Assembly (NCBI GenBank): GCA_041178425.1
Contig: JBEGVH010000031.1
Span: forward strand, 135,206-199,205
Length of the DNA stretch: 64,000 nucleotides
Direction: 5' to 3'
Source of the DNA: Pseudomonadota bacterium
Lineage (GTDB): Bacteria > Bdellovibrionota > Bdellovibrionia > Bdellovibrionales > Bdellovibrionaceae
Shown: piece after piece, positions 54,093-64,000 of the stretch
Numbering within the stretch: the stretch's first letter is position 1
How the letters are laid out: each line of letters starts with the position of its first letter
Notes under the pieces: model-generated
Databases searched by the model: none
What the model saw: only the letters and a program-made list of their open reading frames with translations
Told to the model about the DNA's origin: nothing
Program-made: the position numbers and the translations under genes

Positions 54093-55760
54093 TTACCGTT
54101 TCTTCCAATAGGCCCATCCGCCAAAAAGAATGGCGAGGGTGTAGCCGACAAAGCTTGAGAGCGGCAAACCCAAAACTTCGCGTGTGCTTGGTTGGCCAAG
54201 AGAAACAGTGGCGCTAATTATCAAACTCGCAATGATTAAGCCCCAATACATCATTACGCCAAAGCGATCGATCGCCTTGGGAACCTCGCTGATGCCCAAA
54301 AGATCCACGCGCAAGGCGTATCCCGGGTGGTTGATCTTGCGAAGGGCTTGGCGCAACTGCCGCGGCAAAACATACAAGAGGTTTTTGGAATCTCTTAATA
54401 CCTCAAACAACTCGGTGCTGATCTTTTGCGGATCATATTGGGTTTTTGCCAGTTGCATGGCGAACTCGAGCGCATAATGGAGAAAATCAAAGTCTTTGAT
54501 AATTCGACGGCTCAACCCTTCGATGGTAACGATGGATTTAAAGAACATCATCATTTCGGTGGGAAGTGCCACGTGGTTCTTGGTCGCAACCGAAGAAGAG
54601 TTCATCAGCACACGTCCTAAATTGACGCTCTTAAGAGTGAGGCCGTAATAAGGCGCCACCACATCACGAAGTTCACGCGCAAATTTATCCACGTCGGTTT
54701 TTTCGTTGAAGGGCGCAAGGTTAACATACTCTTCGGCCAAGCGATCATAATCTTCGGTGGCCAGAGCGAGCAGCATATTGGCAATGGCGGTTTGGGTTTT
54801 ACGGTTAATTCTGCCCACCACGCCAAAATCAATGAGACCAATTCTGTTCCCGGGGAGAATGAAAAAGTTTCCGGCGTGCAAATCTCCATGAAAAAAACCG
54901 TAGTTAAAAACCATTTCCATATAGCAGCGTAAGCCGGCCTTAACGATGGCTTCGCGGTCTAATGAGGGATCTTTCAAGGCCTCTTCTGAGCTGAGCGGAA
55001 TTCCCTTGAGTGCCTCCAGCACCAAAACGCGCTCAGTAGAAAGCTCTAAATAAACTTTAGGTATGTAGATGTGGTCGTCTTTAGCAAAGTTTTCTGCAAA
55101 TCGGCGAATATTATTAGCTTCGATGAGAAAGTTGGTTTCGAGTTCAAGAGTTTTAAAGTACTCGTCAACAATACCAACCGGATTATAAGGCCGAGTCTCT
55201 TCGATGTATTTTTCGAGAAGCTCTGCTAAAAAATAAAGAACACTTAAATCATCATTAATAGTAGCAACAATCCCTGGTCGCTGAACCTTGACGACCACCT
55301 CGGTGCCGTCTTTGAGTTTAGCTAAATGCACTTGAGCGATACTCGCCGAGCCCAGGGGCTTTGGATCAAAAAAATCAAAATTTTGATGGAGGCTATCGCC
55401 GAATTCTTCTTTGAGAACCTGTTCAACGACTTCGAAACTCAATGGCAAAACGTCGGCGTGCAGTTTCTCAAACTCCGACACCCAAGAGGCGGGCACTAAA
55501 TCAGGGCGAGTGGCCAGAAGCTGCCCGAGTTTTACATATGTAGGCCCGAGCTCTTCAAAGCTCATACGAATACGTTGCGCAACACTGAGGTGTTCGAGCT
55601 CAGCGTCGGGCGTGATTTTTTCCAAAATGTAGCGACCCAGCTGGAGTCGCTCAAGAATGTTATGAAAGCCGTGTCTAGCGAAGACGGCGAGAATTGTTCT
55701 TAGTCTTCCCGCGTTTTTTAGAGTCTTTCCCAGAGTCTTTCCTGTCTCGATGATCCGCAC
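54093..55760 (-). CDS. ubiB: UbiB/AarF/ABC1 family kinase-like protein
   Basis: LGPTYVKLGQ, ASIAQVH, VKVQRP, FFHGDLHAGN, IDFG, two C-terminal TM helices. GTG at 55760 follows GAGGGG. Confidence 0.9.
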   Translation of the reverse strand: MRIIETGKTLGKTLKNAGRLRTILAVFARHGFHNILERLQLGRYILEKITPDAELEHLSVAQRIRMSFEELGPTYVKLGQLLATRPDLVPASWVSEFEKLHADVLPLSFEVVEQVLKEEFGDSLHQNFDFFDPKPLGSASIAQVHLAKLKDGTEVVVKVQRPGIVATINDDLSVLYFLAELLEKYIEETRPYNPVGIVDEYFKTLELETNFLIEANNIRRFAENFAKDDHIYIPKVYLELSTERVLVLEALKGIPLSSEEALKDPSLDREAIVKAGLRCYMEMVFNYGFFHGDLHAGNFFILPGNRIGLIDFGVVGRINRKTQTAIANMLLALATEDYDRLAEEYVNLAPFNEKTDVDKFARELRDVVAPYYGLTLKSVNLGRVLMNSSSVATKNHVALPTEMMMFFKSIVTIEGLSRRIIKDFDFLHYALEFAMQLAKTQYDPQKISTELFEVLRDSKNLLYVLPRQLRQALRKINHPGYALRVDLLGISEVPKAIDRFGVMMYWGLIIASLIISATVSLGQPSTREVLGLPLSSFVGYTLAILFGGWAYWKKR

Positions 55761-58218
55761 CTTTCGAACCCCCCTCAATACTTCTATCGAGTTTATCTAA
55801 AATATCTAAAAACCTACTCTTAAGACTTTTTGGTTTAGCCTTTTCAGTTTCTTTTGGTGGCGAGGCTTTTTGCTCAGAAGCTTTTGGAGCAGGAGCCACC
55901 GCTTTTCGTCGTGACTCTAAAAACTCTTTGAGGGAGTCTTTGCTTGAGTTTCCTGGCTCCTCATCGCGATCAAATATTCGCTTAACTGAACCTTTACGCT
56001 TTTCACCTTTTTTCTCAAAAAACTTCTCTTTACTGTGACGCCCCTTATTGGGTTGGCCCCGCTCCGCGGTGGGTTTTGAGCGATCGGGAGCCCCTGCTTT
56101 TGATCGCTCTTTATCGTCGGGTTTATGGCCCTTTCTTCGATCGTGACGATCGTCACCCTTTGGTTTGTCATGGCGGTCGCGGTGATTTTTATCGCGGCCC
56201 CTTTTTGATTTTTCACGAGGGCGCGAGCCCCAAGGAGTTTCTTGGCGATCGCCCTCTTGGCTTGAGGCGCGGCGGCTTTTTCGCGTGACCTTGTGTTCGG
56301 GGTCTAGGTCAAAGTTAATCTGCCCCAGCTCAACATCGACGCTGGTAACAGTAACCTTCACCATTTGCCCGAGTTTAAAAACTGTGTGTGATCGTTCACC
56401 CATGAGTCGCAGATTGTCTTCGTCGAAAACCCAGCGATCATCTCCAAGATTTTCAAGTTTAACGAGCCCATCAATGTCAAACTCACGAAGCAACACAAAA
56501 GCTCCAAATCGCGCAATGGAGCTGATCATTCCGGTAAACTCTTTGCCCACAAAGCGCTGGATAAAGCGGGCCTTCTTGATACCCATAAATTGGCGTTCAC
56601 ACTTAACGGCTCTTTGCTCCGTCGATGACAAAATCGTTCCCGCCGTGGTGAGATCATCAATAGACGGCATTGGGTATTTGTTCTCAGACACCACATAGTG
56701 CTTCAATAATCGATGCACAATCAAATCAGGGTATCGCCGAATTGGCGAAGTAAAATGAGTGTAGGTTGCAAACCCTAGTCCGAAGTGTCCAATGTTATTT
56801 GAGCTATATTTGGCTTGGCTCAAAGAGCGTAAAGTTAAAATACTAATGATCTGCCCCTCGGCATGATCGGCAAATTGTTCGAGGGCCTTTGAGAGTTTCT
56901 TTTGCAGCTTTTCGCCGCCCAATCGAATGTGCGAACCGAGGTTGTGAAGGTAAACCTCAAGAAGCTTAATTGAGTCGGGGCTTGGGTCTTCGTGAACCCG
57001 ATAAATCGCGCCTTGCTCTTTGCGCTCAAGAAACTCAGCAACAGCCACGTTGGCCGCGAGCATGAGCTCTTCGATAAGGCGATGGGCAAAAAGCCGTTCA
57101 GATTTTTGCACGTCGATCGGATTGCCGCTCGCATCGATGGTGAGTTCTGTTTGCGAGATATTTAAATCTAAGGAGCCCTCTCGAAAACGGCGAATCATCA
57201 AAACCTTTGCTAAGTCTGAGCAGCGAAGGATCGTCTCTTTAACATGGTTAAACTTTTCGATATCAGTTCCGTCAATAATCTCTTGGGCCTCACCATAAGT
57301 CACTCGGGCCTGACTCTTCATAACAGCTTCGTAGAACTTTGATTTTTGAATTTGGCCTTGAAAATCAAAGTGCATATCGGCCACCAAACAAAGGCGGGGC
57401 ACATTCGGCTTTAGCGAGCAGAGACCATTACTCAGAATTTCTGGAAGCATCGGCACAACGTGGTTTGGAAAGTAAACGCTTGTTCCCCGATCGTAGGCAT
57501 CCTGATCTAGAGCTGTGCCGGGCTTAACGTAGTGGCTCACATCGGCAATCGCTACGATTAAATGAAAGCCGGTGTCGGTCATTTCAGTGTAAACGGCATC
57601 GTCAAAATCTTTTGCCGTGGCGCCATCGATGGTGATGAGCGGAAGATCCATGAGGCTCTTACGAGACTTCCAATCCGAAGGGAGCGGATCTTCATCAAGG
57701 CTTGCCACTTCGGTGAGCGTGGCTCGCGAAAACTCTTCGGGCACATTCTGCATTCTCAAAACGCGCTTTACATCTGTGAGCGGATCTTCGGCATTGCCGA
57801 TCACCTCGATGACTTTACCCGTAAAAGGTGTGCCTTCACCCGGATAGGTAAGGATCTCGATCTGCACCAGATCGCCATCTTTACCTTTGAGGGCGTCTTC
57901 TTTTTTAATCTTGAGGTTCTGCCCCCAGCCTTTTGAGTCGTCGGGAATTAAAAACCAAAGATCATTTTGAGTGGTGAGGCGCCCAACCAGTTTATTGGTG
58001 CCCCTTGACGTTATCTCAATGATTTCGCCATGGTAGCGATTGTCGCCACGAGATTTAAAAACCTTTGCCGAAACGCGATCATTGGTCATCACGCCGGTCA
58101 TAAAATGCTTAGGAATATAAACGTCAGCATGTTCTGGGTTGTCTGGAATCAAGAAGCCGAATCCATCGGCGTGTCTTTTAATAATACCGGTAATTAGAGA
58201 ATTTTTATCTTTTGTCAT
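55675..58218 (-). CDS. rnr: Ribonuclease R
   Basis: H.DGFGF, TIDG.TAKDFDDA, RGTSVY, IEELML.AN, HFTSPIRRYPDL, S1 domain, long basic tail. ATG at 58218. Confidence 0.95.
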   Translation of the reverse strand: MTKDKNSLITGIIKRHADGFGFLIPDNPEHADVYIPKHFMTGVMTNDRVSAKVFKSRGDNRYHGEIIEITSRGTNKLVGRLTTQNDLWFLIPDDSKGWGQNLKIKKEDALKGKDGDLVQIEILTYPGEGTPFTGKVIEVIGNAEDPLTDVKRVLRMQNVPEEFSRATLTEVASLDEDPLPSDWKSRKSLMDLPLITIDGATAKDFDDAVYTEMTDTGFHLIVAIADVSHYVKPGTALDQDAYDRGTSVYFPNHVVPMLPEILSNGLCSLKPNVPRLCLVADMHFDFQGQIQKSKFYEAVMKSQARVTYGEAQEIIDGTDIEKFNHVKETILRCSDLAKVLMIRRFREGSLDLNISQTELTIDASGNPIDVQKSERLFAHRLIEELMLAANVAVAEFLERKEQGAIYRVHEDPSPDSIKLLEVYLHNLGSHIRLGGEKLQKKLSKALEQFADHAEGQIISILTLRSLSQAKYSSNNIGHFGLGFATYTHFTSPIRRYPDLIVHRLLKHYVVSENKYPMPSIDDLTTAGTILSSTEQRAVKCERQFMGIKKARFIQRFVGKEFTGMISSIARFGAFVLLREFDIDGLVKLENLGDDRWVFDEDNLRLMGERSHTVFKLGQMVKVTVTSVDVELGQINFDLDPEHKVTRKSRRASSQEGDRQETPWGSRPREKSKRGRDKNHRDRHDKPKGDDRHDRRKGHKPDDKERSKAGAPDRSKPTAERGQPNKGRHSKEKFFEKKGEKRKGSVKRIFDRDEEPGNSSKDSLKEFLESRRKAVAPAPKASEQKASPPKETEKAKPKSLKSRFLDILDKLDRSIEGGSKGADHRDRKDSGKDSKKRGKTKNNSRRLR

Positions 58219-58301
58219 TGCTGGGGATTCTAACACGCTTCTCTCGAAACGCTAGATAAAAAGAGGGGAGAGGGAGCTTGGTGTTTTTAAATCTTTCAAA
58301 G

Positions 58302-58328
58302 GAAAGCAATTTAGTCTAAAACCGATAT
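58302..58328 (+). promoter_or_regulatory. Possible sigma28-type promoter for the HEPN-MNT pair
   Basis: GAAA-N15-ACCGATAT. Confidence 0.35.
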
Positions 58329-58353
58329 TGTTAATTTGAGGTGAGGAACTATC

Positions 58354-58800
58354 ATGGCTGATTTGTCTAAATATCGAGATCTTGAAAATAAATACGCAGA
58401 GTACCTTTTAAAGGCGACAAAGCACCTTGAGTATTCGCTCAACAAGTCTCACGTGCTCCCAAAAGAACTCGATAAAAATACCGAGGAATCACTCGAAGGC
58501 TGGGAAGGGCTCACGGCTCGATTTGCCAGGGTGGTAGATATTTTTCTTACTAAATACATTAAAGCCAAGGTGAAGAGCGATGATCCCATTTTTGATGGAA
58601 CCCTCAGAGACTACCTCAATATGGCGGAAAAAGCTAAATTGATAGAGAACGTCGATCACTGGCTTTCTTTAAGAGAACTTCGAAACATTCAAGCCCATGA
58701 TTATACCAACGAAGCCTTTCAGCAATTTATTACGGCTATACAGATCGAGTCTCAGTTTGTTCTTTCGGAAATGAAGAAATTAGGTTTGTATGCGCCTTAG
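58354..58800 (+). CDS. HEPN-domain toxin (HI0074-like)
   Basis: RF motif and RNIQAHDY = R-X4-H-X-Y. Confidence 0.85.
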   Translation: MADLSKYRDLENKYAEYLLKATKHLEYSLNKSHVLPKELDKNTEESLEGWEGLTARFARVVDIFLTKYIKAKVKSDDPIFDGTLRDYLNMAEKAKLIENVDHWLSLRELRNIQAHDYTNEAFQQFITAIQIESQFVLSEMKKLGLYAP

Positions 58801-59110
58801 TGAAGAAGACCTGCAGGGTTTAAAAAAAGGCCTCACTGAATTTTTAGCGACTTATAGTGACCTTCAGGTTTATCTCTTTGGAAGTCGTACCGACGACTCT
58901 AAAAAGGGTGGCGACATCGACTTGCTTTTGGTTGTGCGCGCGGAAGATCTTGAAAGTCTGCAACTTAACAAGCATCGCGCGATAACGGCGGCTAAAAAAT
59001 ACATCGATGACCAAAAGCTCGATCTCACCATTCGTTCGAGAGAGGCCCTCGCAACCGATGTTTTTTATCAATCCATTCAAAATTCTCTGATTTTGCTTTT
59101 TAAAAAATAA
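58790..59110 (+). CDS. Minimal nucleotidyltransferase (MNT) antitoxin
   Basis: YLFGSR.DD...GGDIDLL plus third Asp (KLD); overlaps the HEPN gene. Confidence 0.88.
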   Translation: MRLSEEDLQGLKKGLTEFLATYSDLQVYLFGSRTDDSKKGGDIDLLLVVRAEDLESLQLNKHRAITAAKKYIDDQKLDLTIRSREALATDVFYQSIQNSLILLFKK

Positions 59111-59374
59111 GCCTACGGGAATCTAACTAGACCTTAGTCTTGCAAAAACAAGTAAGGTGCAATCTGAAGTCAAAAGTCTGAGCGCAATTTTTAACGATGA
59201 CAAGTAAAGAAAAATTTATCGCGGAGCAGATAAAGGTCCTAATATAAAGCGTCAACAGCATAAATAAATCCTATTTTAGTGTGTGTAAAATATAAAACAG
59301 AGGGCTCCGCAACCGCTAGGGGCGTGAGTTTTAAAGCGGCCTTAATTTCTATCCAAAAGCGCTTTTTGAAAAAG

Positions 59375-59406
59375 TTGACACACAAATTTATTGTGCTTTC
59401 TATACT
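59375..59406 (+). promoter_or_regulatory. Sigma70-type promoter with over-long spacer and internal dyad
   Basis: TTGACA-N20-TATACT with CACAA-N5-TTGTG (59381-59395) in the spacer. Confidence 0.5.
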
Positions 59407-59504
59407 AAACAAAAATCCATTGCGCCTAAAAATGGGCCTTATTACAGTCTAGGAGTAGGAAACAAAAAATAAGAGACGCAAGTCTTTAACGAAAGGAATA
59501 CGTT

Positions 59505-60599
59505 ATGAAAAAGACGCTCTACTTCTTTGCAGCTATGACTTTAGTTGCATCTTCTGCGATGGCATCTAAGGCTCGCTTATCTGCACTTGGAAACTCGCAA
59601 GTCGCTGTTGACTCTGACATCCAAGGGATTTTCCAAAACCCTGCTTACATGCACTATGTAGGTGATTTCGCAACATTCGAAATGGGCGAAAAGGCTGGAA
59701 CGGCAGCTGAGGCTGTTGATAACGAGCCAAATCCAGAAGGTGGCTTCATCAGCACTATGGGAGATGCTAAGTTTGGTGTTTACTTGGGTAAACAATCAAC
59801 TGACACAAACTCTTTCAGAAAAGGTTTGAATACTGTTCTGGGCGCTGAACGTTTTCTTCAACAAGAAAATCCATTTGAAGTGTTCTACGGTGCCAAAGCT
59901 GGCGATTTGAACTGGGGTGCGAGTTTTACTTACTCAAACTCGGACCTCAAAACAACTGAGCAAAAGCAAAACGCAATGGGTCTTAGAATGGGTGTTCGCA
60001 CTGACGACTGGGCAGCATTTGCAAACGTAGGTCTTGGAAGTTCAGCAAAGAATGCAGCTGTTGGCGAAGTTAAGGGAACATCTGGTATTCAATTGGGTGG
60101 TCACTATATGATGGATAACATGAGAGTCTATGGTATCTACCAAGGTTCAGGAGCTAAGTTCACAACAGCTGCTGGAACAACTGGTATGGATGCGACTGTT
60201 GCCACTACTTCAATTGGTTTCACGAATGCATGGAAAAACGAAGGAAACCTTGCTTTCTACGGAGTGTCTTATGAAATGTATAACAAAGAAGATAAGACTT
60301 CAAAGAATGAAGAAGCTAGAACTTCATTGCCTGTAACTATCGGTGCTGAAGTTGCTGCAACTTCATGGATGAAGCTTCGTGGTTCAGTGGCTCAGAATGT
60401 ACTACTTGGATCAAAAAAGCTAACAGCGGCGGGTGTTGCTGGTAAAATCGACACTGCAACTCATGATACCGTTACGGCAGCTGGTGCTGGTTTCAACTGG
60501 GGACACAATAACTTAGATGTTGTGATGACTATGGGTACATCAGCTGAAGTTGATTCAACTAATTTTGGAACAAATGCTTCTTACACTTACATGTTCTAA
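59505..60599 (+). CDS. Major outer-membrane protein/porin paralog 1
   Basis: Signal peptide, SKARLSALG, beta-strands, C-terminal YTYMF; codon usage looks highly expressed, similar to groEL. Confidence 0.8.
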   Translation: MKKTLYFFAAMTLVASSAMASKARLSALGNSQVAVDSDIQGIFQNPAYMHYVGDFATFEMGEKAGTAAEAVDNEPNPEGGFISTMGDAKFGVYLGKQSTDTNSFRKGLNTVLGAERFLQQENPFEVFYGAKAGDLNWGASFTYSNSDLKTTEQKQNAMGLRMGVRTDDWAAFANVGLGSSAKNAAVGEVKGTSGIQLGGHYMMDNMRVYGIYQGSGAKFTTAAGTTGMDATVATTSIGFTNAWKNEGNLAFYGVSYEMYNKEDKTSKNEEARTSLPVTIGAEVAATSWMKLRGSVAQNVLLGSKKLTAAGVAGKIDTATHDTVTAAGAGFNWGHNNLDVVMTMGTSAEVDSTNFGTNASYTYMF

Positions 60600-60630
60600 T
60601 TAAAGAAAACGATTTAGAAAGGATTTAAAG

Positions 60631-61686
60631 ATGAAAGCAAAAATATTATTAGCATCTGCAATTGCTCTAACTGGTGTAACTAGTTTCGCAACTACTGCTC
60701 GACTTAACGCCCTTGGAAACGCAGTTCAACTAATCGACATTCAAAATGTTTTTCAAAGACCAACTGATATGCATCTGCTTGCAGACTCTATGGTTTTCGA
60801 ATTTGGAAATTCTCAAATTGGCCAGCCCACTCAAGGTGGTTTTGTAAGAACTATGGGTGAAGGAAAGCTTGGATTTTTCCTCGGCTACGGAGATAAAACT
60901 AGATCAATCGATATCGATGGTTCTGGTGCCGGAGCTGCAGCTGAAGCATTCCTCGGCGCTGAGAATCCGTTCACAGTTGCTTATGGCATGAAAACGGCAG
61001 ACATTCCTTGGGCTGTTGCCTTGACAAGCTCGTCTTCAGATATCAAGACGGCAAGCCAGAAGCAGGCAATGACTACTTTGAGCGCTTCAGCTGTATATTC
61101 TGACGTTACTATCAACGCAAACCTTGGTCTTGGAGATAGCGCAACAGGAATTACTGGTAACGCTACTCCCAAGTACACTGGAACAAACAATTCCTTGGGT
61201 GCTTGGTATGCAATGGGTGATTTGAACGTTTATGGTAAATACGCAGCCACTGGCGATAAAGTAGAAGGTGCTACAAACAATGGTGAAGCATCTGAGACAA
61301 ATCTAAGTGTCGGTGTTATCAATTCAGCTAAAAAAGAAGGTACTGAGTTCTTTTACGGTGCGTCTTATTTGATGAAGACAAATAAAGCCACTCCAACTGG
61401 CGGAACTGAAACAAAGACAGATGGCACTTATATGCCAGTCATCATCGGTCTAGAAGCTGATGCTGCATCTTGGTTGACTCTTCGTGGTTCTATCACTCAG
61501 AACGTTCTTTTGGGCGGTGAGAAAACAACTCAAACTAACACAATCTCCCACGATACAACCGTTGCTGCTGGTGCAGGGGTGAAGTTCAACAAAGCTTCAA
61601 TCGATATGACTCTCTCTATGGGAACATCTGGTTCTGTTAAAACAGATGATATCGGTGCTAACGCTGCTTTGAACTACATGTTCTAA
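60631..61686 (+). CDS. Major outer-membrane protein/porin paralog 2
   Basis: Shares ARL.ALGN, ENPF.V.YG.K, W..LRGS..QNVLLG, HDT..AAGAG and YMF with paralog 1. Confidence 0.8.
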   Translation: MKAKILLASAIALTGVTSFATTARLNALGNAVQLIDIQNVFQRPTDMHLLADSMVFEFGNSQIGQPTQGGFVRTMGEGKLGFFLGYGDKTRSIDIDGSGAGAAAEAFLGAENPFTVAYGMKTADIPWAVALTSSSSDIKTASQKQAMTTLSASAVYSDVTINANLGLGDSATGITGNATPKYTGTNNSLGAWYAMGDLNVYGKYAATGDKVEGATNNGEASETNLSVGVINSAKKEGTEFFYGASYLMKTNKATPTGGTETKTDGTYMPVIIGLEADAASWLTLRGSITQNVLLGGEKTTQTNTISHDTTVAAGAGVKFNKASIDMTLSMGTSGSVKTDDIGANAALNYMF

Positions 61687-61713
61687 TTTAGAACTCAGAG
61701 TTCAATTTAACTC

Positions 61714-61748
61714 AAACCCTCGGGTAACCCCCGGGGGTTTTTGTTTTT
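61714..61748 (+). terminator. Rho-independent terminator after the OMP pair
   Basis: aaaccctcggg-taacc-cccgggggttt followed by ttgttttt. Confidence 0.88.
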
Positions 61749-61907
61749 GGCGTGTTCGCTGTTCGGATGGCCATTTCGTTGATCGAATCTCAAGTCCTAT
61801 CTAATAACCTCAGAAACCCTGGCACGTCTTGCTTAATAGAGCCTCGGTCACTCCAACTGGCGAGGCTCCAAAACGAAGAAGACCCCCACTACACAGTGGA
61901 GGTCCAC

Positions 61908-62030
61908 ATGAAAAAACTATCTCACAAGCAAGATAGATTTCGGAAGTTCGTTAGAACAGCTAAAGCAGTTTTAGGTCTAGTTATGCTAGTGCTGAAAATA
62001 CTGAAGCTCCTGTTGGATCTCATATACTAG
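61908..62030 (+). CDS. 40-aa cationic amphipathic peptide, candidate type I toxin
   Basis: MKKLSHKQDRFRKFVRTAKAVLGLVMLVLKILKLLLDLIY; GGAGG SD. Versus copy 2: 5 synonymous codon changes and 33/40 identical residues. Confidence 0.75.
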   Translation: MKKLSHKQDRFRKFVRTAKAVLGLVMLVLKILKLLLDLIY

Positions 62031-62054
62031 TACGTGTTTTGGTTCTGGTACGTT

Positions 62055-62139
62055 AACGGATGAGACGAGTTCCCCGCAGCTCAGTTCAAAAGTTCACAAT
62101 CCCCGACCAAGGATAGGGCGTACAACTCAGTGGGGTGTT
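62055..62139. other. 85-nt segment present only in cassette copy 1
   Basis: Copy 2 reads ggtacgtt|gccttc; copy 1 has aacgg...gggtgtt between them, with GTT repeated at the junctions. Confidence 0.85.
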
Positions 62140-62232
62140 GCCTTCACGGTTGGTTCTGCTAAGCAGGTTGGAGTGGCCACTTTAACCTCTCTAAGTGTTC
62201 CAAAATATTCTGATGCCTGTATGACAGTCCTC

Positions 62233-62580
62233 TGCTCGCCGTTCGGAAACCCGTTCCGTTGATCGGATCTCAATTCCTATTGAATCAACTTTCACAGCTT
62301 GGCACGTCTTGCTTAATAGAGCCTCGGTCGCTCCAACTGGCGAGGCTCCAAAACGAAGAAGACCCCCACTACACTGTGGAGGTCCACATGAAAACACTAT
62401 CTACCAACCAAGATAGGTTTCGGAAGTTCGTAAGAACAGCTAAAGCAGTTTTAGGTCTAGTAATACTAGTATTGAAAGCTCTGCGGCTCCTGTTGGATCT
62501 CATAAGCTAGTACGTGTTTTGGTTCTGGTACGTTGCCTTCACGGTTGGATTTGCTAAGCAAGTTGGAGTGGCCACTCAAC
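62233..62580 (+). repeat. Peptide/structured-RNA cassette, copy 2
   Basis: Direct repeat of copy 1. Confidence 0.92.
62388..62510 (+). CDS. 40-aa cationic amphipathic peptide, candidate type I toxin (paralog)
   Basis: MKTLSTNQDRFRKFVRTAKAVLGLVILVLKALRLLLDLIS; same SD and same stop position as copy 1. Confidence 0.75.
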   Translation: MKTLSTNQDRFRKFVRTAKAVLGLVILVLKALRLLLDLIS

Positions 62581-62600
62581 CCTTGCGAGGAGGCTCGCTC

Positions 62601-63803
62601 ATGTATGTATTGTTAATGATCGAAGTGATTTACAAAGTACTCACGGCACTGGTCGGTGCTCTTGTATTGATTGTGTCGGTTACTAATTGCTCCCTTAAAC
62701 TCACTCCAAAGGAGGACAGGGATAACAAGGTTGTAAAAATATCGGGGGCACCCGATACGACTTTGTCGTTGCGGGGGCTTCAGATTCACAGATACCTTGC
62801 CGAGATTAGTTATCCCGCTGGTCTCAGTCATTTGCGTCTTGAGGTTAACGATCATATTTGGGTAGAGCAGCTCCAACCACCAAGCCAATCCATCGTCGTT
62901 GGGTTTGAGGATCAAGCTCAATATAAAGTAAAACTTTTGGGTCGCACGCACCCCGAAGCAGAGACCACTTTAGTCGCCGAGTGGGAAGTCACAACGCCTA
63001 CAGACCTCTTGCTCGATCAATCGACCTTCGCTAAAACGCTAACCCTAAACTCTACCGTTGTTATTCAGGCGGAACGAGTGTTTTTGCCCCCTGGAACACC
63101 GGAGAGTCCCTCTTTAACCACTCAAGGGCAGAAGCTCCACATTGTTGCCAACGAACTCATTGCCAACGAATCCGTGATTGCCACCTTTGCAAAGGCACAA
63201 AAAGCTAGCCAAGACCAAGCTGGCCGCGATGGTGGAGAGATTTTTATCAAGGCCCTTTTCGCAAAAGGAGACCTGTCGATCGTCATGCGAGGAGAAGAAG
63301 GAGGCGATGGCAGTGCGGGGCCATCCTTTAACGAACGCGCACCATCGGGGTTGCAAGGTAAACGCGGGCGAGCGTTCTGTCGGTCGCGATTTAGTGGGGG
63401 AGACCCAGTCCTAACGTGTCGATGTTTGGAGTTTCCGGGAGATGGTGGGCCCGGTCATGATGGGCAGTCAGGGCGAGCAGGTCTCCCAGGGCGTCGGGGT
63501 GGGCACTCGGGGCAACTCAAAATGGAACTAGCGCTTGTACCTACGGCAGATTGGAAGCTCAGCTTAGTCAAAGAGCCAGGCCTTGCTGGGGCACCAGGTA
63601 CTGGTGGGCCCGGGCAATTGGGTGGGCAGGGGGGCGACGCCGGAATCATCGACGATGCAAATGCGTGTTATCCGACCCAAAGCAAGAAGGGCCAAGAGGG
63701 TTTAGTTGGGGCCGATGGGCCTTCTGGAATTCGTGAGCCGCCAGGGCTCGCACAACAAGAATGCCTTTCGATCGGTGAAGGCTTCGGACGTTGCTCAGAC
63801 TAG
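62601..63803 (+). CDS. Collagen-like (Gly-X-Y) surface lipoprotein
   Basis: ATG at 62601 follows GAGGAGG; hydrophobic signal ending SVTNC; several GXY runs (GDGGPGHDGQSGRAGLPGRRGGHSG; GLAGAPGTGGPGQLGGQGG) interleaved with Cys. Confidence 0.7.
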   Translation: MYVLLMIEVIYKVLTALVGALVLIVSVTNCSLKLTPKEDRDNKVVKISGAPDTTLSLRGLQIHRYLAEISYPAGLSHLRLEVNDHIWVEQLQPPSQSIVVGFEDQAQYKVKLLGRTHPEAETTLVAEWEVTTPTDLLLDQSTFAKTLTLNSTVVIQAERVFLPPGTPESPSLTTQGQKLHIVANELIANESVIATFAKAQKASQDQAGRDGGEIFIKALFAKGDLSIVMRGEEGGDGSAGPSFNERAPSGLQGKRGRAFCRSRFSGGDPVLTCRCLEFPGDGGPGHDGQSGRAGLPGRRGGHSGQLKMELALVPTADWKLSLVKEPGLAGAPGTGGPGQLGGQGGDAGIIDDANACYPTQSKKGQEGLVGADGPSGIREPPGLAQQECLSIGEGFGRCSD

Positions 63804-63873
63804 GCCGGGAACACAAGGTGGCCACGTGGTCGAGATTCGGACGCCATCTCTTATTAACCAAGGACTCGCTGTG

Positions 63874-64000
63874 TGTCTCGATTTGCAATTAAGTACCCTT
63901 GGCCAAACCAACCGCCCCTACTGGGAGAGGTGAGCGTAAGTTCACCGCTCTAAAGAAAAAGACCCCCACCGCTAACGATGGAGGTCAAAATGACAAACTT
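63874..64000 (+). repeat. Diverged third cassette copy (leader plus start of ORF, truncated)
   Basis: GGCCAAACCAAC, hairpin, A-rich linker, GACCCCCAC...TGGAGGTC anti-SD hairpin, ATG at 63990. Confidence 0.7.

Follow-up and report, generated by a model that had tools for sequence, protein, structure and literature searches.

A candidate type I toxin-antitoxin cassette of Bdellovibrionales with a predicted rod-like mRNA and a FliA-type antisense promoter

In the hok/Sok and aapA/IsoA systems, the toxin mRNAs are silenced by long-distance pairing of their 5' and 3' ends, and they are activated by 3' trimming and refolding. For aapA3, several closed states are described in the part of PMC6733600 available to us. 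For HD100, the tables of Fozo et al. (PMC2887945, extract) give 0 type I loci, besides one 54-aa candidate that looks unrelated. The genus Bdellovibrio is never named in the text of T1TAdb. In the openly accessible literature, taken in extracts, on type I toxin-antitoxin loci, antisense RNAs and small proteins of Bdellovibrio, no such system is described, and equally open sources hold no description of a type I system under FliA or sigma-54. Here, we describe a cassette found in a 64,000-nt stretch of a Bdellovibrionaceae contig (JBEGVH010000031.1), hereafter referred to as the window. We regard it as a candidate type I toxin-antitoxin module composed of a rod-like mRNA and a short FliA-type antisense RNA, a reading to which sequence comparison and folding lend a probability of roughly 0.7.

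The window contains two tandem copies of the cassette on the plus strand, which are 87% identical over 300 nt, copy 2 being shorter by 85 nt. Copy 1 can be described as a leader, an ORF and a trailer. The 5' arm of a long-distance helix (61846-61860) is in the leader, while the 3' arm (62164-62178) is in the trailer and is followed by CACTTT; a T-rich run 3' of the arm is found family-wide. The ORF of 40 aa (61908-62030) is preceded by an anti-SD/SD hairpin (61879-61905), in which the SD, GGAGG, occupies 61898-61902. A distal anti-SD is located at the ORF end (62014-62021). The trailer of copy 1 includes an 85-nt segment (62052-62136) with two ANGGA motifs and a GTGGGG that pairs with the anti-SD; this segment, flanked by GTT microhomology, is missing in copy 2. 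The second copy (62300-62581, plus strand) has its promoter-like element at 62300-62312, its 5' arm at 62326-62340, its SD hairpin at 62359-62385, its ORF of 40 aa at 62388-62510 and its 3' arm at 62559-62573. Of a third, diverged cassette, the 5' part is present on the plus strand (63883-64000) up to the contig end, with TTGC at 63883-63886, a 5' arm at 63901-63918, an SD hairpin at 63959-63986 and an ATG at 63990. Before the promoter-like element, some 70 nt more belong to the repeated unit (61753-61819 and 62233-62299), alike in both copies; these similar segments are a possible activator-binding region. Whole-cassette folds have z-scores of -2.87 and -2.09, and an Rfam scan of 55000-64000 gave three weak matches, none inside the cassette.

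The preliminary description of this locus had proposed that the two flanks zip into a rod of four nested helices, and that a separate 13-bp pairing could switch to a 3'-terminal hairpin. On recomputation, the listed pairings are all present at their coordinates: the outer helix 61828-61843/62152-62167 has 15 of 16 pairs, three of them G-U, the second helix 61853-61866/62140-62153 has 12 of 14, the third 61868-61875/62035-62042 and the SD/ORF-end helix 61899-61906/62014-62021 each have 8 of 8, the 13-bp helix 61846-61858/62166-62178 has 13 of 13 and the 3' hairpin 62165-62188 has 10 of 10. The proposed rod does not hold in the predicted full-length ensemble, where the outer, second and third helices do not form. 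Nor could the outer helix join the 13-bp helix in one nested rod, since the two cross. It is the 13-bp helix, set apart as separate in that description, which acts as the actual 5'-3' lock in the predicted fold, pairing 61846-61860 with 62164-62178 (p 0.96-0.99). This helix closes the rod, and nested inside is an anti-SD/trailer helix, 61884-61889/62130-62135 (p 1.0). The SD/ORF-end helix has a probability of 0.93 in copy 1 and of 0.4 in copy 2. The 3' hairpin exists as an alternative of p 0.03 or less in the full-length RNA, and reaches 0.95 only when the 13-bp helix loses one of its arms; the second helix (0.77-0.84) and the palindrome (0.59 and 0.22) then also appear. Between copies 1 and 2, the changes in the 13-bp helix are swaps of Watson-Crick and G-U pairs only. 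The change of the palindrome from CTGCTAAGCAG to TTGCTAAGCAA is likewise real, but the palindrome itself has a probability of 0.0 in the full-length ensemble. We compared each helix with 1000 dinucleotide shuffles, pairing the 3' region with the leader and scoring the 13-bp helix with its 16-nt extension. Equal or better chance helices arose 5 times per 1000 for the 13-bp helix and 39 times for the outer helix, versus 710, 992 and 956 times for the remaining three. Of the listed helices, the 13-bp helix alone is clearly beyond chance.

The cassette belongs to an order-wide, unnamed family. With a profile built from 30 peptides, matches were found in 40 of 401 genomes sampled across the phylum, the window's genome included, all of the same order, and 295 representatives were retrieved among 1.84 billion proteins. 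A leader pattern defined on DNA only found 23 loci in a collection of 185,579 species, all titled Bdellovibrio, Pseudobdellovibrionaceae, Bdellovibrionaceae or Bdellovibrionales. Its 24 matches comprise 17 with a profile-scoring peptide, one with a similar unscored peptide and six with a short, shifted or missing ORF; some of the peptides are identical to ones found earlier. In the phylum sample and the species collection, the family was thus found only in Bdellovibrionales. The SD hairpin is found at 13 sites of the window's genome, which fall into three subfamilies. Three of these sites are at contig ends, where one copy may count twice; one of the 13 ORFs stops after 8 codons and one runs to 55. 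Among 6346 short ORFs of the fetched loci and of the window's genome, 109 distinct members score at least 18 bits. From these, 103 loci were kept after six with over-long ORFs, short flanks or Ns were dropped; 95 remained when eight more without a promoter anchor were set aside, and folding was applied to the 77 that reached a helix score of 24.

The peptide has 32-47 aa in 104 of the 109 loci, with a median length of 40 aa and a median charge of +6. A transmembrane-like window (19 residues, KD at least 1.6) is found in 92 of the 104 peptides with a length of 30-48 residues. Peptide 1 of the window has a net charge of +8 and a 19-residue hydrophobic stretch with a KD of 2.42, and it is predicted to form a single helix; the structure model has one helix, residues 5-39, with a pLDDT of 85. 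The type I class is marked by a short mRNA for a hydrophobic protein of 20-60 aa, and the peptide, with its putative mRNA, agrees with this. Searches of Pfam, NCBIfam, PHROGs and the PDB returned no family for the peptide; among the 10 cluster members listed, two carry a name, 'hypothetical protein'. In the ESM Atlas, the best matches (0.88-0.89) are unnamed clusters of 39-41 aa, which serve as leads only. A weak feature match to TisB (0.83, rank 24) is the sole likeness to a known toxin.

Across the family, the leader and the trailer of a locus pair better with each other than with those of other loci. Over 103 loci, the pairing score of the own partner averages 33.0, versus 22.0 for shuffled and 22.1 for foreign partners; 61 loci beat all 30 shuffles and 54 beat all 30 foreign partners. 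With a promoter-anchored 5' window, own partners score 30.1 versus 17.7 for foreign ones, 90 of 95 loci being above the foreign mean and 58 above all 25 foreign partners, whereas an upstream negative-control window gives 17.1 versus 16.9. The loci are related by descent, so that these pairing counts overstate independence. Covariation in homologues, by this comparison of own with foreign partners, is seen for the 13-bp helix, the arms of which have diverged and yet are complementary; nearly every helix position has all four Watson-Crick pair types across the family. The outer helix fares differently. Its homologues have no cognate pairing (16.0 versus 15.4), and its arm starts in the predicted promoter; since the predicted mRNA starts at about 61844, the outer arm 61828-61843 would be outside the RNA. 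The second of the helices nested within the 5'-3' helix is weaker family-wide (18.2 versus 15.2, 61 of 77 loci). RNAalifold on a MAFFT alignment of 27 mRNAs returned a consensus structure without any pairs, probably since the alignment does not bring the diverged arms into register, and a consensus fold of the trailers only is weak (-0.85 kcal/mol). The ends pair in 77 of 77 folded mRNAs, a count that is circular since the helix defined the ends.

The SD can be closed by several partners. Local anti-SD pairing is stronger for the own partner (18.1 versus 15.0, 71 of 95 loci), while the SD/ORF-end test (13.9 versus 13.5) and the SD/trailer test (15.5 versus 15.4) are flat, both being blind to motifs common to all loci; the family signal of the distal anti-SD is small (12.4 versus 11.6 after recoding). 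In folding predictions for the whole family, the SD of the nascent RNA is paired with the leader at 0.82, and in the full RNA it is paired with the leader at 0.42 and with the ORF end or early trailer at 0.29. The predicted family mean of free SD is just 0.17-0.23 in every RNA form. In the window copies, the SD of the primary transcript is likewise sequestered in prediction, with 0.10-0.17 unpaired. Copy 1 also has a local 5' hairpin, GAGCCTCG/CGAGGCTC (61839-61868, plus strand), in the position of the promoter-proximal terminator hairpin of the family. It has a probability of 0.84-0.94 in RNAs that start at 61820 and lack the 3' arm and of 0.0 at full length, and in folding it needs a transcription start upstream of 61839 to form. 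The preliminary description had suggested a multi-state switch like that of hok and aapA, activated by 3' trimming. The architecture stands, with its covarying 5'-3' helix and its exchange of SD partners, and the antisense promoter and terminator described below, absent from that description, support such a layout. Release by trimming does not appear in folding: the SD is unpaired at 0.28 in the full and 0.26 in the trimmed RNA, and at 0.10-0.17 in every truncation of copy 1. By equilibrium folding, 3' trimming opens the leader in 75 of 77 loci and leaves the SD unchanged (0.24 versus 0.24). Our model therefore has several closed SD states, as in aapA3, with an active state that folding does not predict; translation through a standby site is our guess.

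GG-N10-TGC is the consensus pattern of sigma-54 promoters, and the mRNA promoter of the family looks sigma-54-like by its sequence. GG lies exactly 10 nt before GC in 73 of the 95 anchored homologues, nine others have one G and 13 differ, and in most homologues the arm begins 11-14 nt after this element. The genome of the window encodes RpoN, and among the sigma-54 sites in its upstream regions, a spacing of 10 is the most frequent (51, versus 11-20). In copy 1, the promoter-like element TGGCAC-N3-TTGC (61820-61832, plus strand) has a spacer 2 nt short of the family form, and the distance of 13 nt from its TTGC to the 5' arm agrees with that in the family. All intact copies of this genome are off the sigma-54 spacing, at 8 or 12 nt, which may mean a weak mRNA promoter or one of a different type. 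A sigma-70 scan of 61650-64000 gave 0 promoters. From the family spacing, the mRNA of copy 1 is inferred to start at about 61844, some 12 nt past the GC, and would run on the plus strand to 62186, a few nt past the 3' arm, with a length of about 343 nt; the predicted mRNAs of the 77 loci have 241-407 nt, with a median of 292 nt. An A-rich form of the promoter motif occurs 22 times in five genomes; by coordinate comparison, 13 of these sites directly precede a peptide match. The A-runs around its TGC correspond to the U-tract of a terminator on the minus strand; where this terminator is at the SD hairpin instead, as in the clade of the window, TTGC takes the place of the A-runs. The family promoter hairpin (e.g. 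locus L063, 1430-1463) has A-runs before it and T-runs after it, and could thus also stop read-through from upstream genes. Among assembled contigs from RNA runs of related strains, an intact cassette copy is present in two public Bdellovibrio-like RNA libraries, and one 539-nt RNA contig spans the cassette and runs past both predicted ends. In two other RNA runs, contigs stop near the promoter hairpin, at most a weak hint of termination there.

Two ORFs of the window's genome, which we take from their N-termini to be flagellin-like, have promoters of the same FliA type as the one found on the minus strand within the cassette ORF. In copy 1, this putative FliA (sigma-28)-type promoter, TTTAG-N16-CCGAAA (61964-61938, minus strand), agrees at 11 of 11 positions with the allowed consensus forms, and in copy 2 it is at 62444-62418. 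The described consensus is TTAAG-N16-CCGATA, and 92 of 140 attack-phase promoters are of this type (Karunker et al., PMC3627812, extract). The family-wide match is 9.17 of 11, versus 7.58 ± 0.12 after synonymous recoding (best of 300: 7.92), with a spacing taken from the accessible part of PMC3627812; the motif had been spotted in the same data beforehand, and the test was thus not blind. Wobble T is kept at two positions, in 101 of 103 loci (68.5 expected) and in 92 of 103 (44.4 expected), and the conserved Arg has a CGN codon in 100 of 103 loci, versus 185 of 302 at other Arg codons. Judged by codon usage, the FliA motif is conserved beyond what the peptide needs. Such a promoter would make an antisense RNA over the start codon and the SD; we set the start of this RNA according to the spacing listed in Table S2 of PMC3627812 (extract). 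A terminator-like hairpin follows on the minus strand in 92 of 95 loci, a raw count without a shuffle control, and in both window copies, where the SD hairpin (61879-61905 in copy 1), read on that strand, is followed by a U-rich tract. It is located by the sense promoter in 75 loci (median RNA 95 nt), at the SD hairpin in 16 (52 nt) and elsewhere in one. From promoter and terminator, the antisense RNA of the window would be about 60 nt long, 61870-61929 in copy 1 and 62409-62350 in copy 2, both on the minus strand; that of copy 1 would cover codons 1-7, the start codon, the SD and the anti-SD. Its overlap with the ORF is 22 nt as predicted from the promoter position alone, and its 5' part, over the first codons, is predicted to be open or weakly folded. 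The antisense RNAs of the two copies have five differences, four of them in the first codons.

Based on these features, the cassette could work as follows. A sigma-54-type promoter would start the mRNA at the 5' arm, and a local hairpin is predicted to hide the SD during RNA synthesis. Synthesis of the 3' end would then let the two ends pair, as the covariation of the arms suggests. In the predicted fold, the SD would change to partners located at the ORF end or beyond it, and the mRNA would be stable and inert. By analogy with aapA and hok, loss of the 3' arm may open the leader and make the RNA translatable and open to antisense. The antisense RNA, expected from its conserved promoter, would pair over the SD and first codons, the variability of which would give it copy specificity. 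With the antisense RNA exhausted, the helical peptide, to judge from its physico-chemistry, would insert in the inner membrane and damage it. The promoter types of both strands point to life-cycle control, and an antidote RNA of FliA type would be produced for the most part by swimming cells in search of prey. We tentatively extend this to a life-cycle-gated type I system, with a FliA-made antidote RNA and a locked sigma-54 mRNA with CsrA-type sites, which would act as a developmental timer or checkpoint; this extension is possible, though rather doubtful. If it were true, prey entry would turn off FliA, the master sigma factor of the attack phase, the antisense RNA would decay and the stored mRNA would yield the membrane peptide, either as a checkpoint that kills predators stuck between phases or as a developmental timer. 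The antisense promoter matches the sigma factor behind two thirds of mapped attack-phase promoters (PMC3627812, extract), and a toxin module would in this way be linked to the change from attack to growth phase. The copy present in two RNA libraries makes this testable in a laboratory predator.

The same RNA circuit could serve a non-lethal purpose, the peptide being a developmental small protein that regulates a membrane protein and is on when FliA transcription stops. This is consistent with both promoters resembling alternative-sigma, life-cycle types, with the lack of toxin homology and with the chromosomal location of the cassettes, for which searches of plasmids and phages gave no match. 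However, presence is patchy within one genus (16 of 26 genomes in group g10), the copy number varies from 1 to 13 with tandem copies, and broken copies occur. Moreover, going by type I systems and the available part of PMC6733600, silencing in three layers fits a harmful product better. A regulator is thus an unlikely reading that keeps some weight.

The trailers could suggest a plus-strand RNA that is mainly a structured or CsrA-binding regulator, with a secondary peptide. CANGGA, a CsrA-type motif related to the CAGGA-type repeats of CsrB (PMC7652899, extract), occurs 58 times in 53 of 77 trailers, versus 9.3 ± 2.8 in shuffles, clustering about 30-39 and 60-69 nt from the 3' end, and CsrA is encoded in the window's genome. 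However, most trailers hold only one or two ANGGA sites and that of copy 2 none; the ORF, the SD and the amphipathic pattern of the peptide are conserved across the family, and the putative antisense RNA targets the start codon. An RNA regulator is therefore improbable, and the CANGGA enrichment may be structural rather than CsrA-related. Two further trailer motifs were noticed in the 77 loci, YCAACRTGT after the stop codon in 34 and a CAYGGA-like motif before the 3' arm in 49. In the genus of the window, a tandem ACGT motif seen in the alignment replaces both (12 of 77 loci, in G000, the window's genome, G002 and G003 only); it is at 62029-62054 on the plus strand in copy 1.

The flanks had alternatively been described as imperfect terminal inverted repeats of a small non-autonomous DNA element. 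Copies are indeed dispersed as well as tandem, their neighbours are varied, and strains diverge just beyond the 3' arm in one comparison. However, 72 distinct helices selected on Watson-Crick scores only contain 85 G-U against 7 A-C, which is unexpected for DNA repeats, while the 205 chance helices from 3000 foreign pairs contain 118 against 75. This excess implies that the arms act as plus-strand RNA, and it led us to reject the repeat alternative. Furthermore, the arms are wholly different between subfamilies of one genome while their complementarity is kept, the repeated unit reaches about 90 nt past the 5' arm, and the 87 neighbour frames scanned contain one transposase domain. By sequence, the long-distance helix is a plus-strand RNA structure and not a pair of DNA terminal repeats, and a DNA element is very improbable. 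A MITE, in which terminal inverted repeats are conserved as DNA, was rejected on the same grounds, as the arms differ between copies and favour G-U. In locus L074 (1455-1695), the strain of RNA runs X8 and X10 has about 260 unlike letters where the cassette sits, and the cassette copy of genome G095 at these coordinates lacks about 120 nt, namely the ORF end and most of the trailer.

The 87 neighbour frames, of 100 listed, are mixed and mostly housekeeping. A leader peptide or attenuator for a downstream gene is the least probable reading: the next frame in the window (62514-63803) is on the same strand, but across the family the next long ORF mostly runs the other way (32 of 46 loci), and no family of neighbours is shared between genomes. 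That frame has 429 codons, a collagen-like Gly-X-Y C-terminal part and no Pfam family, and its true start is probably later than 62514. Upstream of the cassettes, two tandem paralogous genes of about 350 aa (59505-60599 and 60631-61686) have signal-peptide-like starts, a C-terminal Phe and a porin-like character, with no Pfam family, and a strong terminator (61714-61746) follows them. An overlapping pair at 58354-59110 looks like a HEPN/MNT-type toxin-antitoxin system, composed of a HEPN-like nucleotidyltransferase substrate-binding protein (PF08780, E 3e-6, below the cut-off) and a minimal nucleotidyltransferase (PF01909, above the cut-off). Elsewhere in the genome, subfamily C cassettes adjoin AAA_14 and DUF4143 ATPase genes (loci L004, 206-2937, and L012, 428-1606).

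As a candidate type I module, the cassette shares features with several described systems. Like ibs/Sib and ldr/Rdl, it has tandem intergenic repeats, a short hydrophobic ORF and an internal antisense RNA, here predicted. However, Sib spans the entire ORF and Ibs has 17-20 aa, while Rdl is wholly 5' of its ORF and ldr ends in a local terminator (PMC8594479; PMC2887945, extract). With hok/Sok it shares a 5'-3' helix like tac/fbi and a membrane-type peptide (PMC8594479, Table S1), and the predicted cis antisense RNA is also short, ending in a 3' terminator hairpin after an unstructured 5' tail. In contrast, Sok is wholly 5' of the ORF, whereas the antisense promoter here is inside it, the 5' region of hok has 100-200 nt versus a leader of about 60 nt, and Hok peptides have 45-60 aa, with no Hok family match here in Pfam or NCBIfam. 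The closest likeness is to aapA/IsoA of Helicobacter and Campylobacter. Both are multi-copy chromosomal loci (PMC6733600, extract; PMC8594479, Table S1), with an mRNA, here predicted, closed by a 5'-3' bottom stem and nested anti-SD and SD stems. In aapA/IsoA the antisense promoter sits within the ORF and the antisense RNA lies inside the mRNA over the ORF start, with an overlap of 10-40 nt; the putative promoter here is likewise within the ORF, and the predicted antisense RNA would overlap it by 22 nt. They differ in the peptide (28-32 aa versus 32-47 aa, median 40), in the mRNA (150-250 nt versus a predicted 241-407, median 292), in the antisense RNA (78 nt ± 20% versus about 95 nt in most loci and about 60 nt in the window's clade) and in the promoters, TANNNT-type there and FliA- and sigma-54-like here. 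Library searches of Pfam, NCBIfam, the PDB and Rfam detected no homology to AapA/IsoA, and since the size limits are exceeded as well, we do not file the cassette in that family. An order-wide, unannotated family with an aapA-like RNA logic and without detected sequence kinship offers a natural test of whether such a logic has arisen twice.
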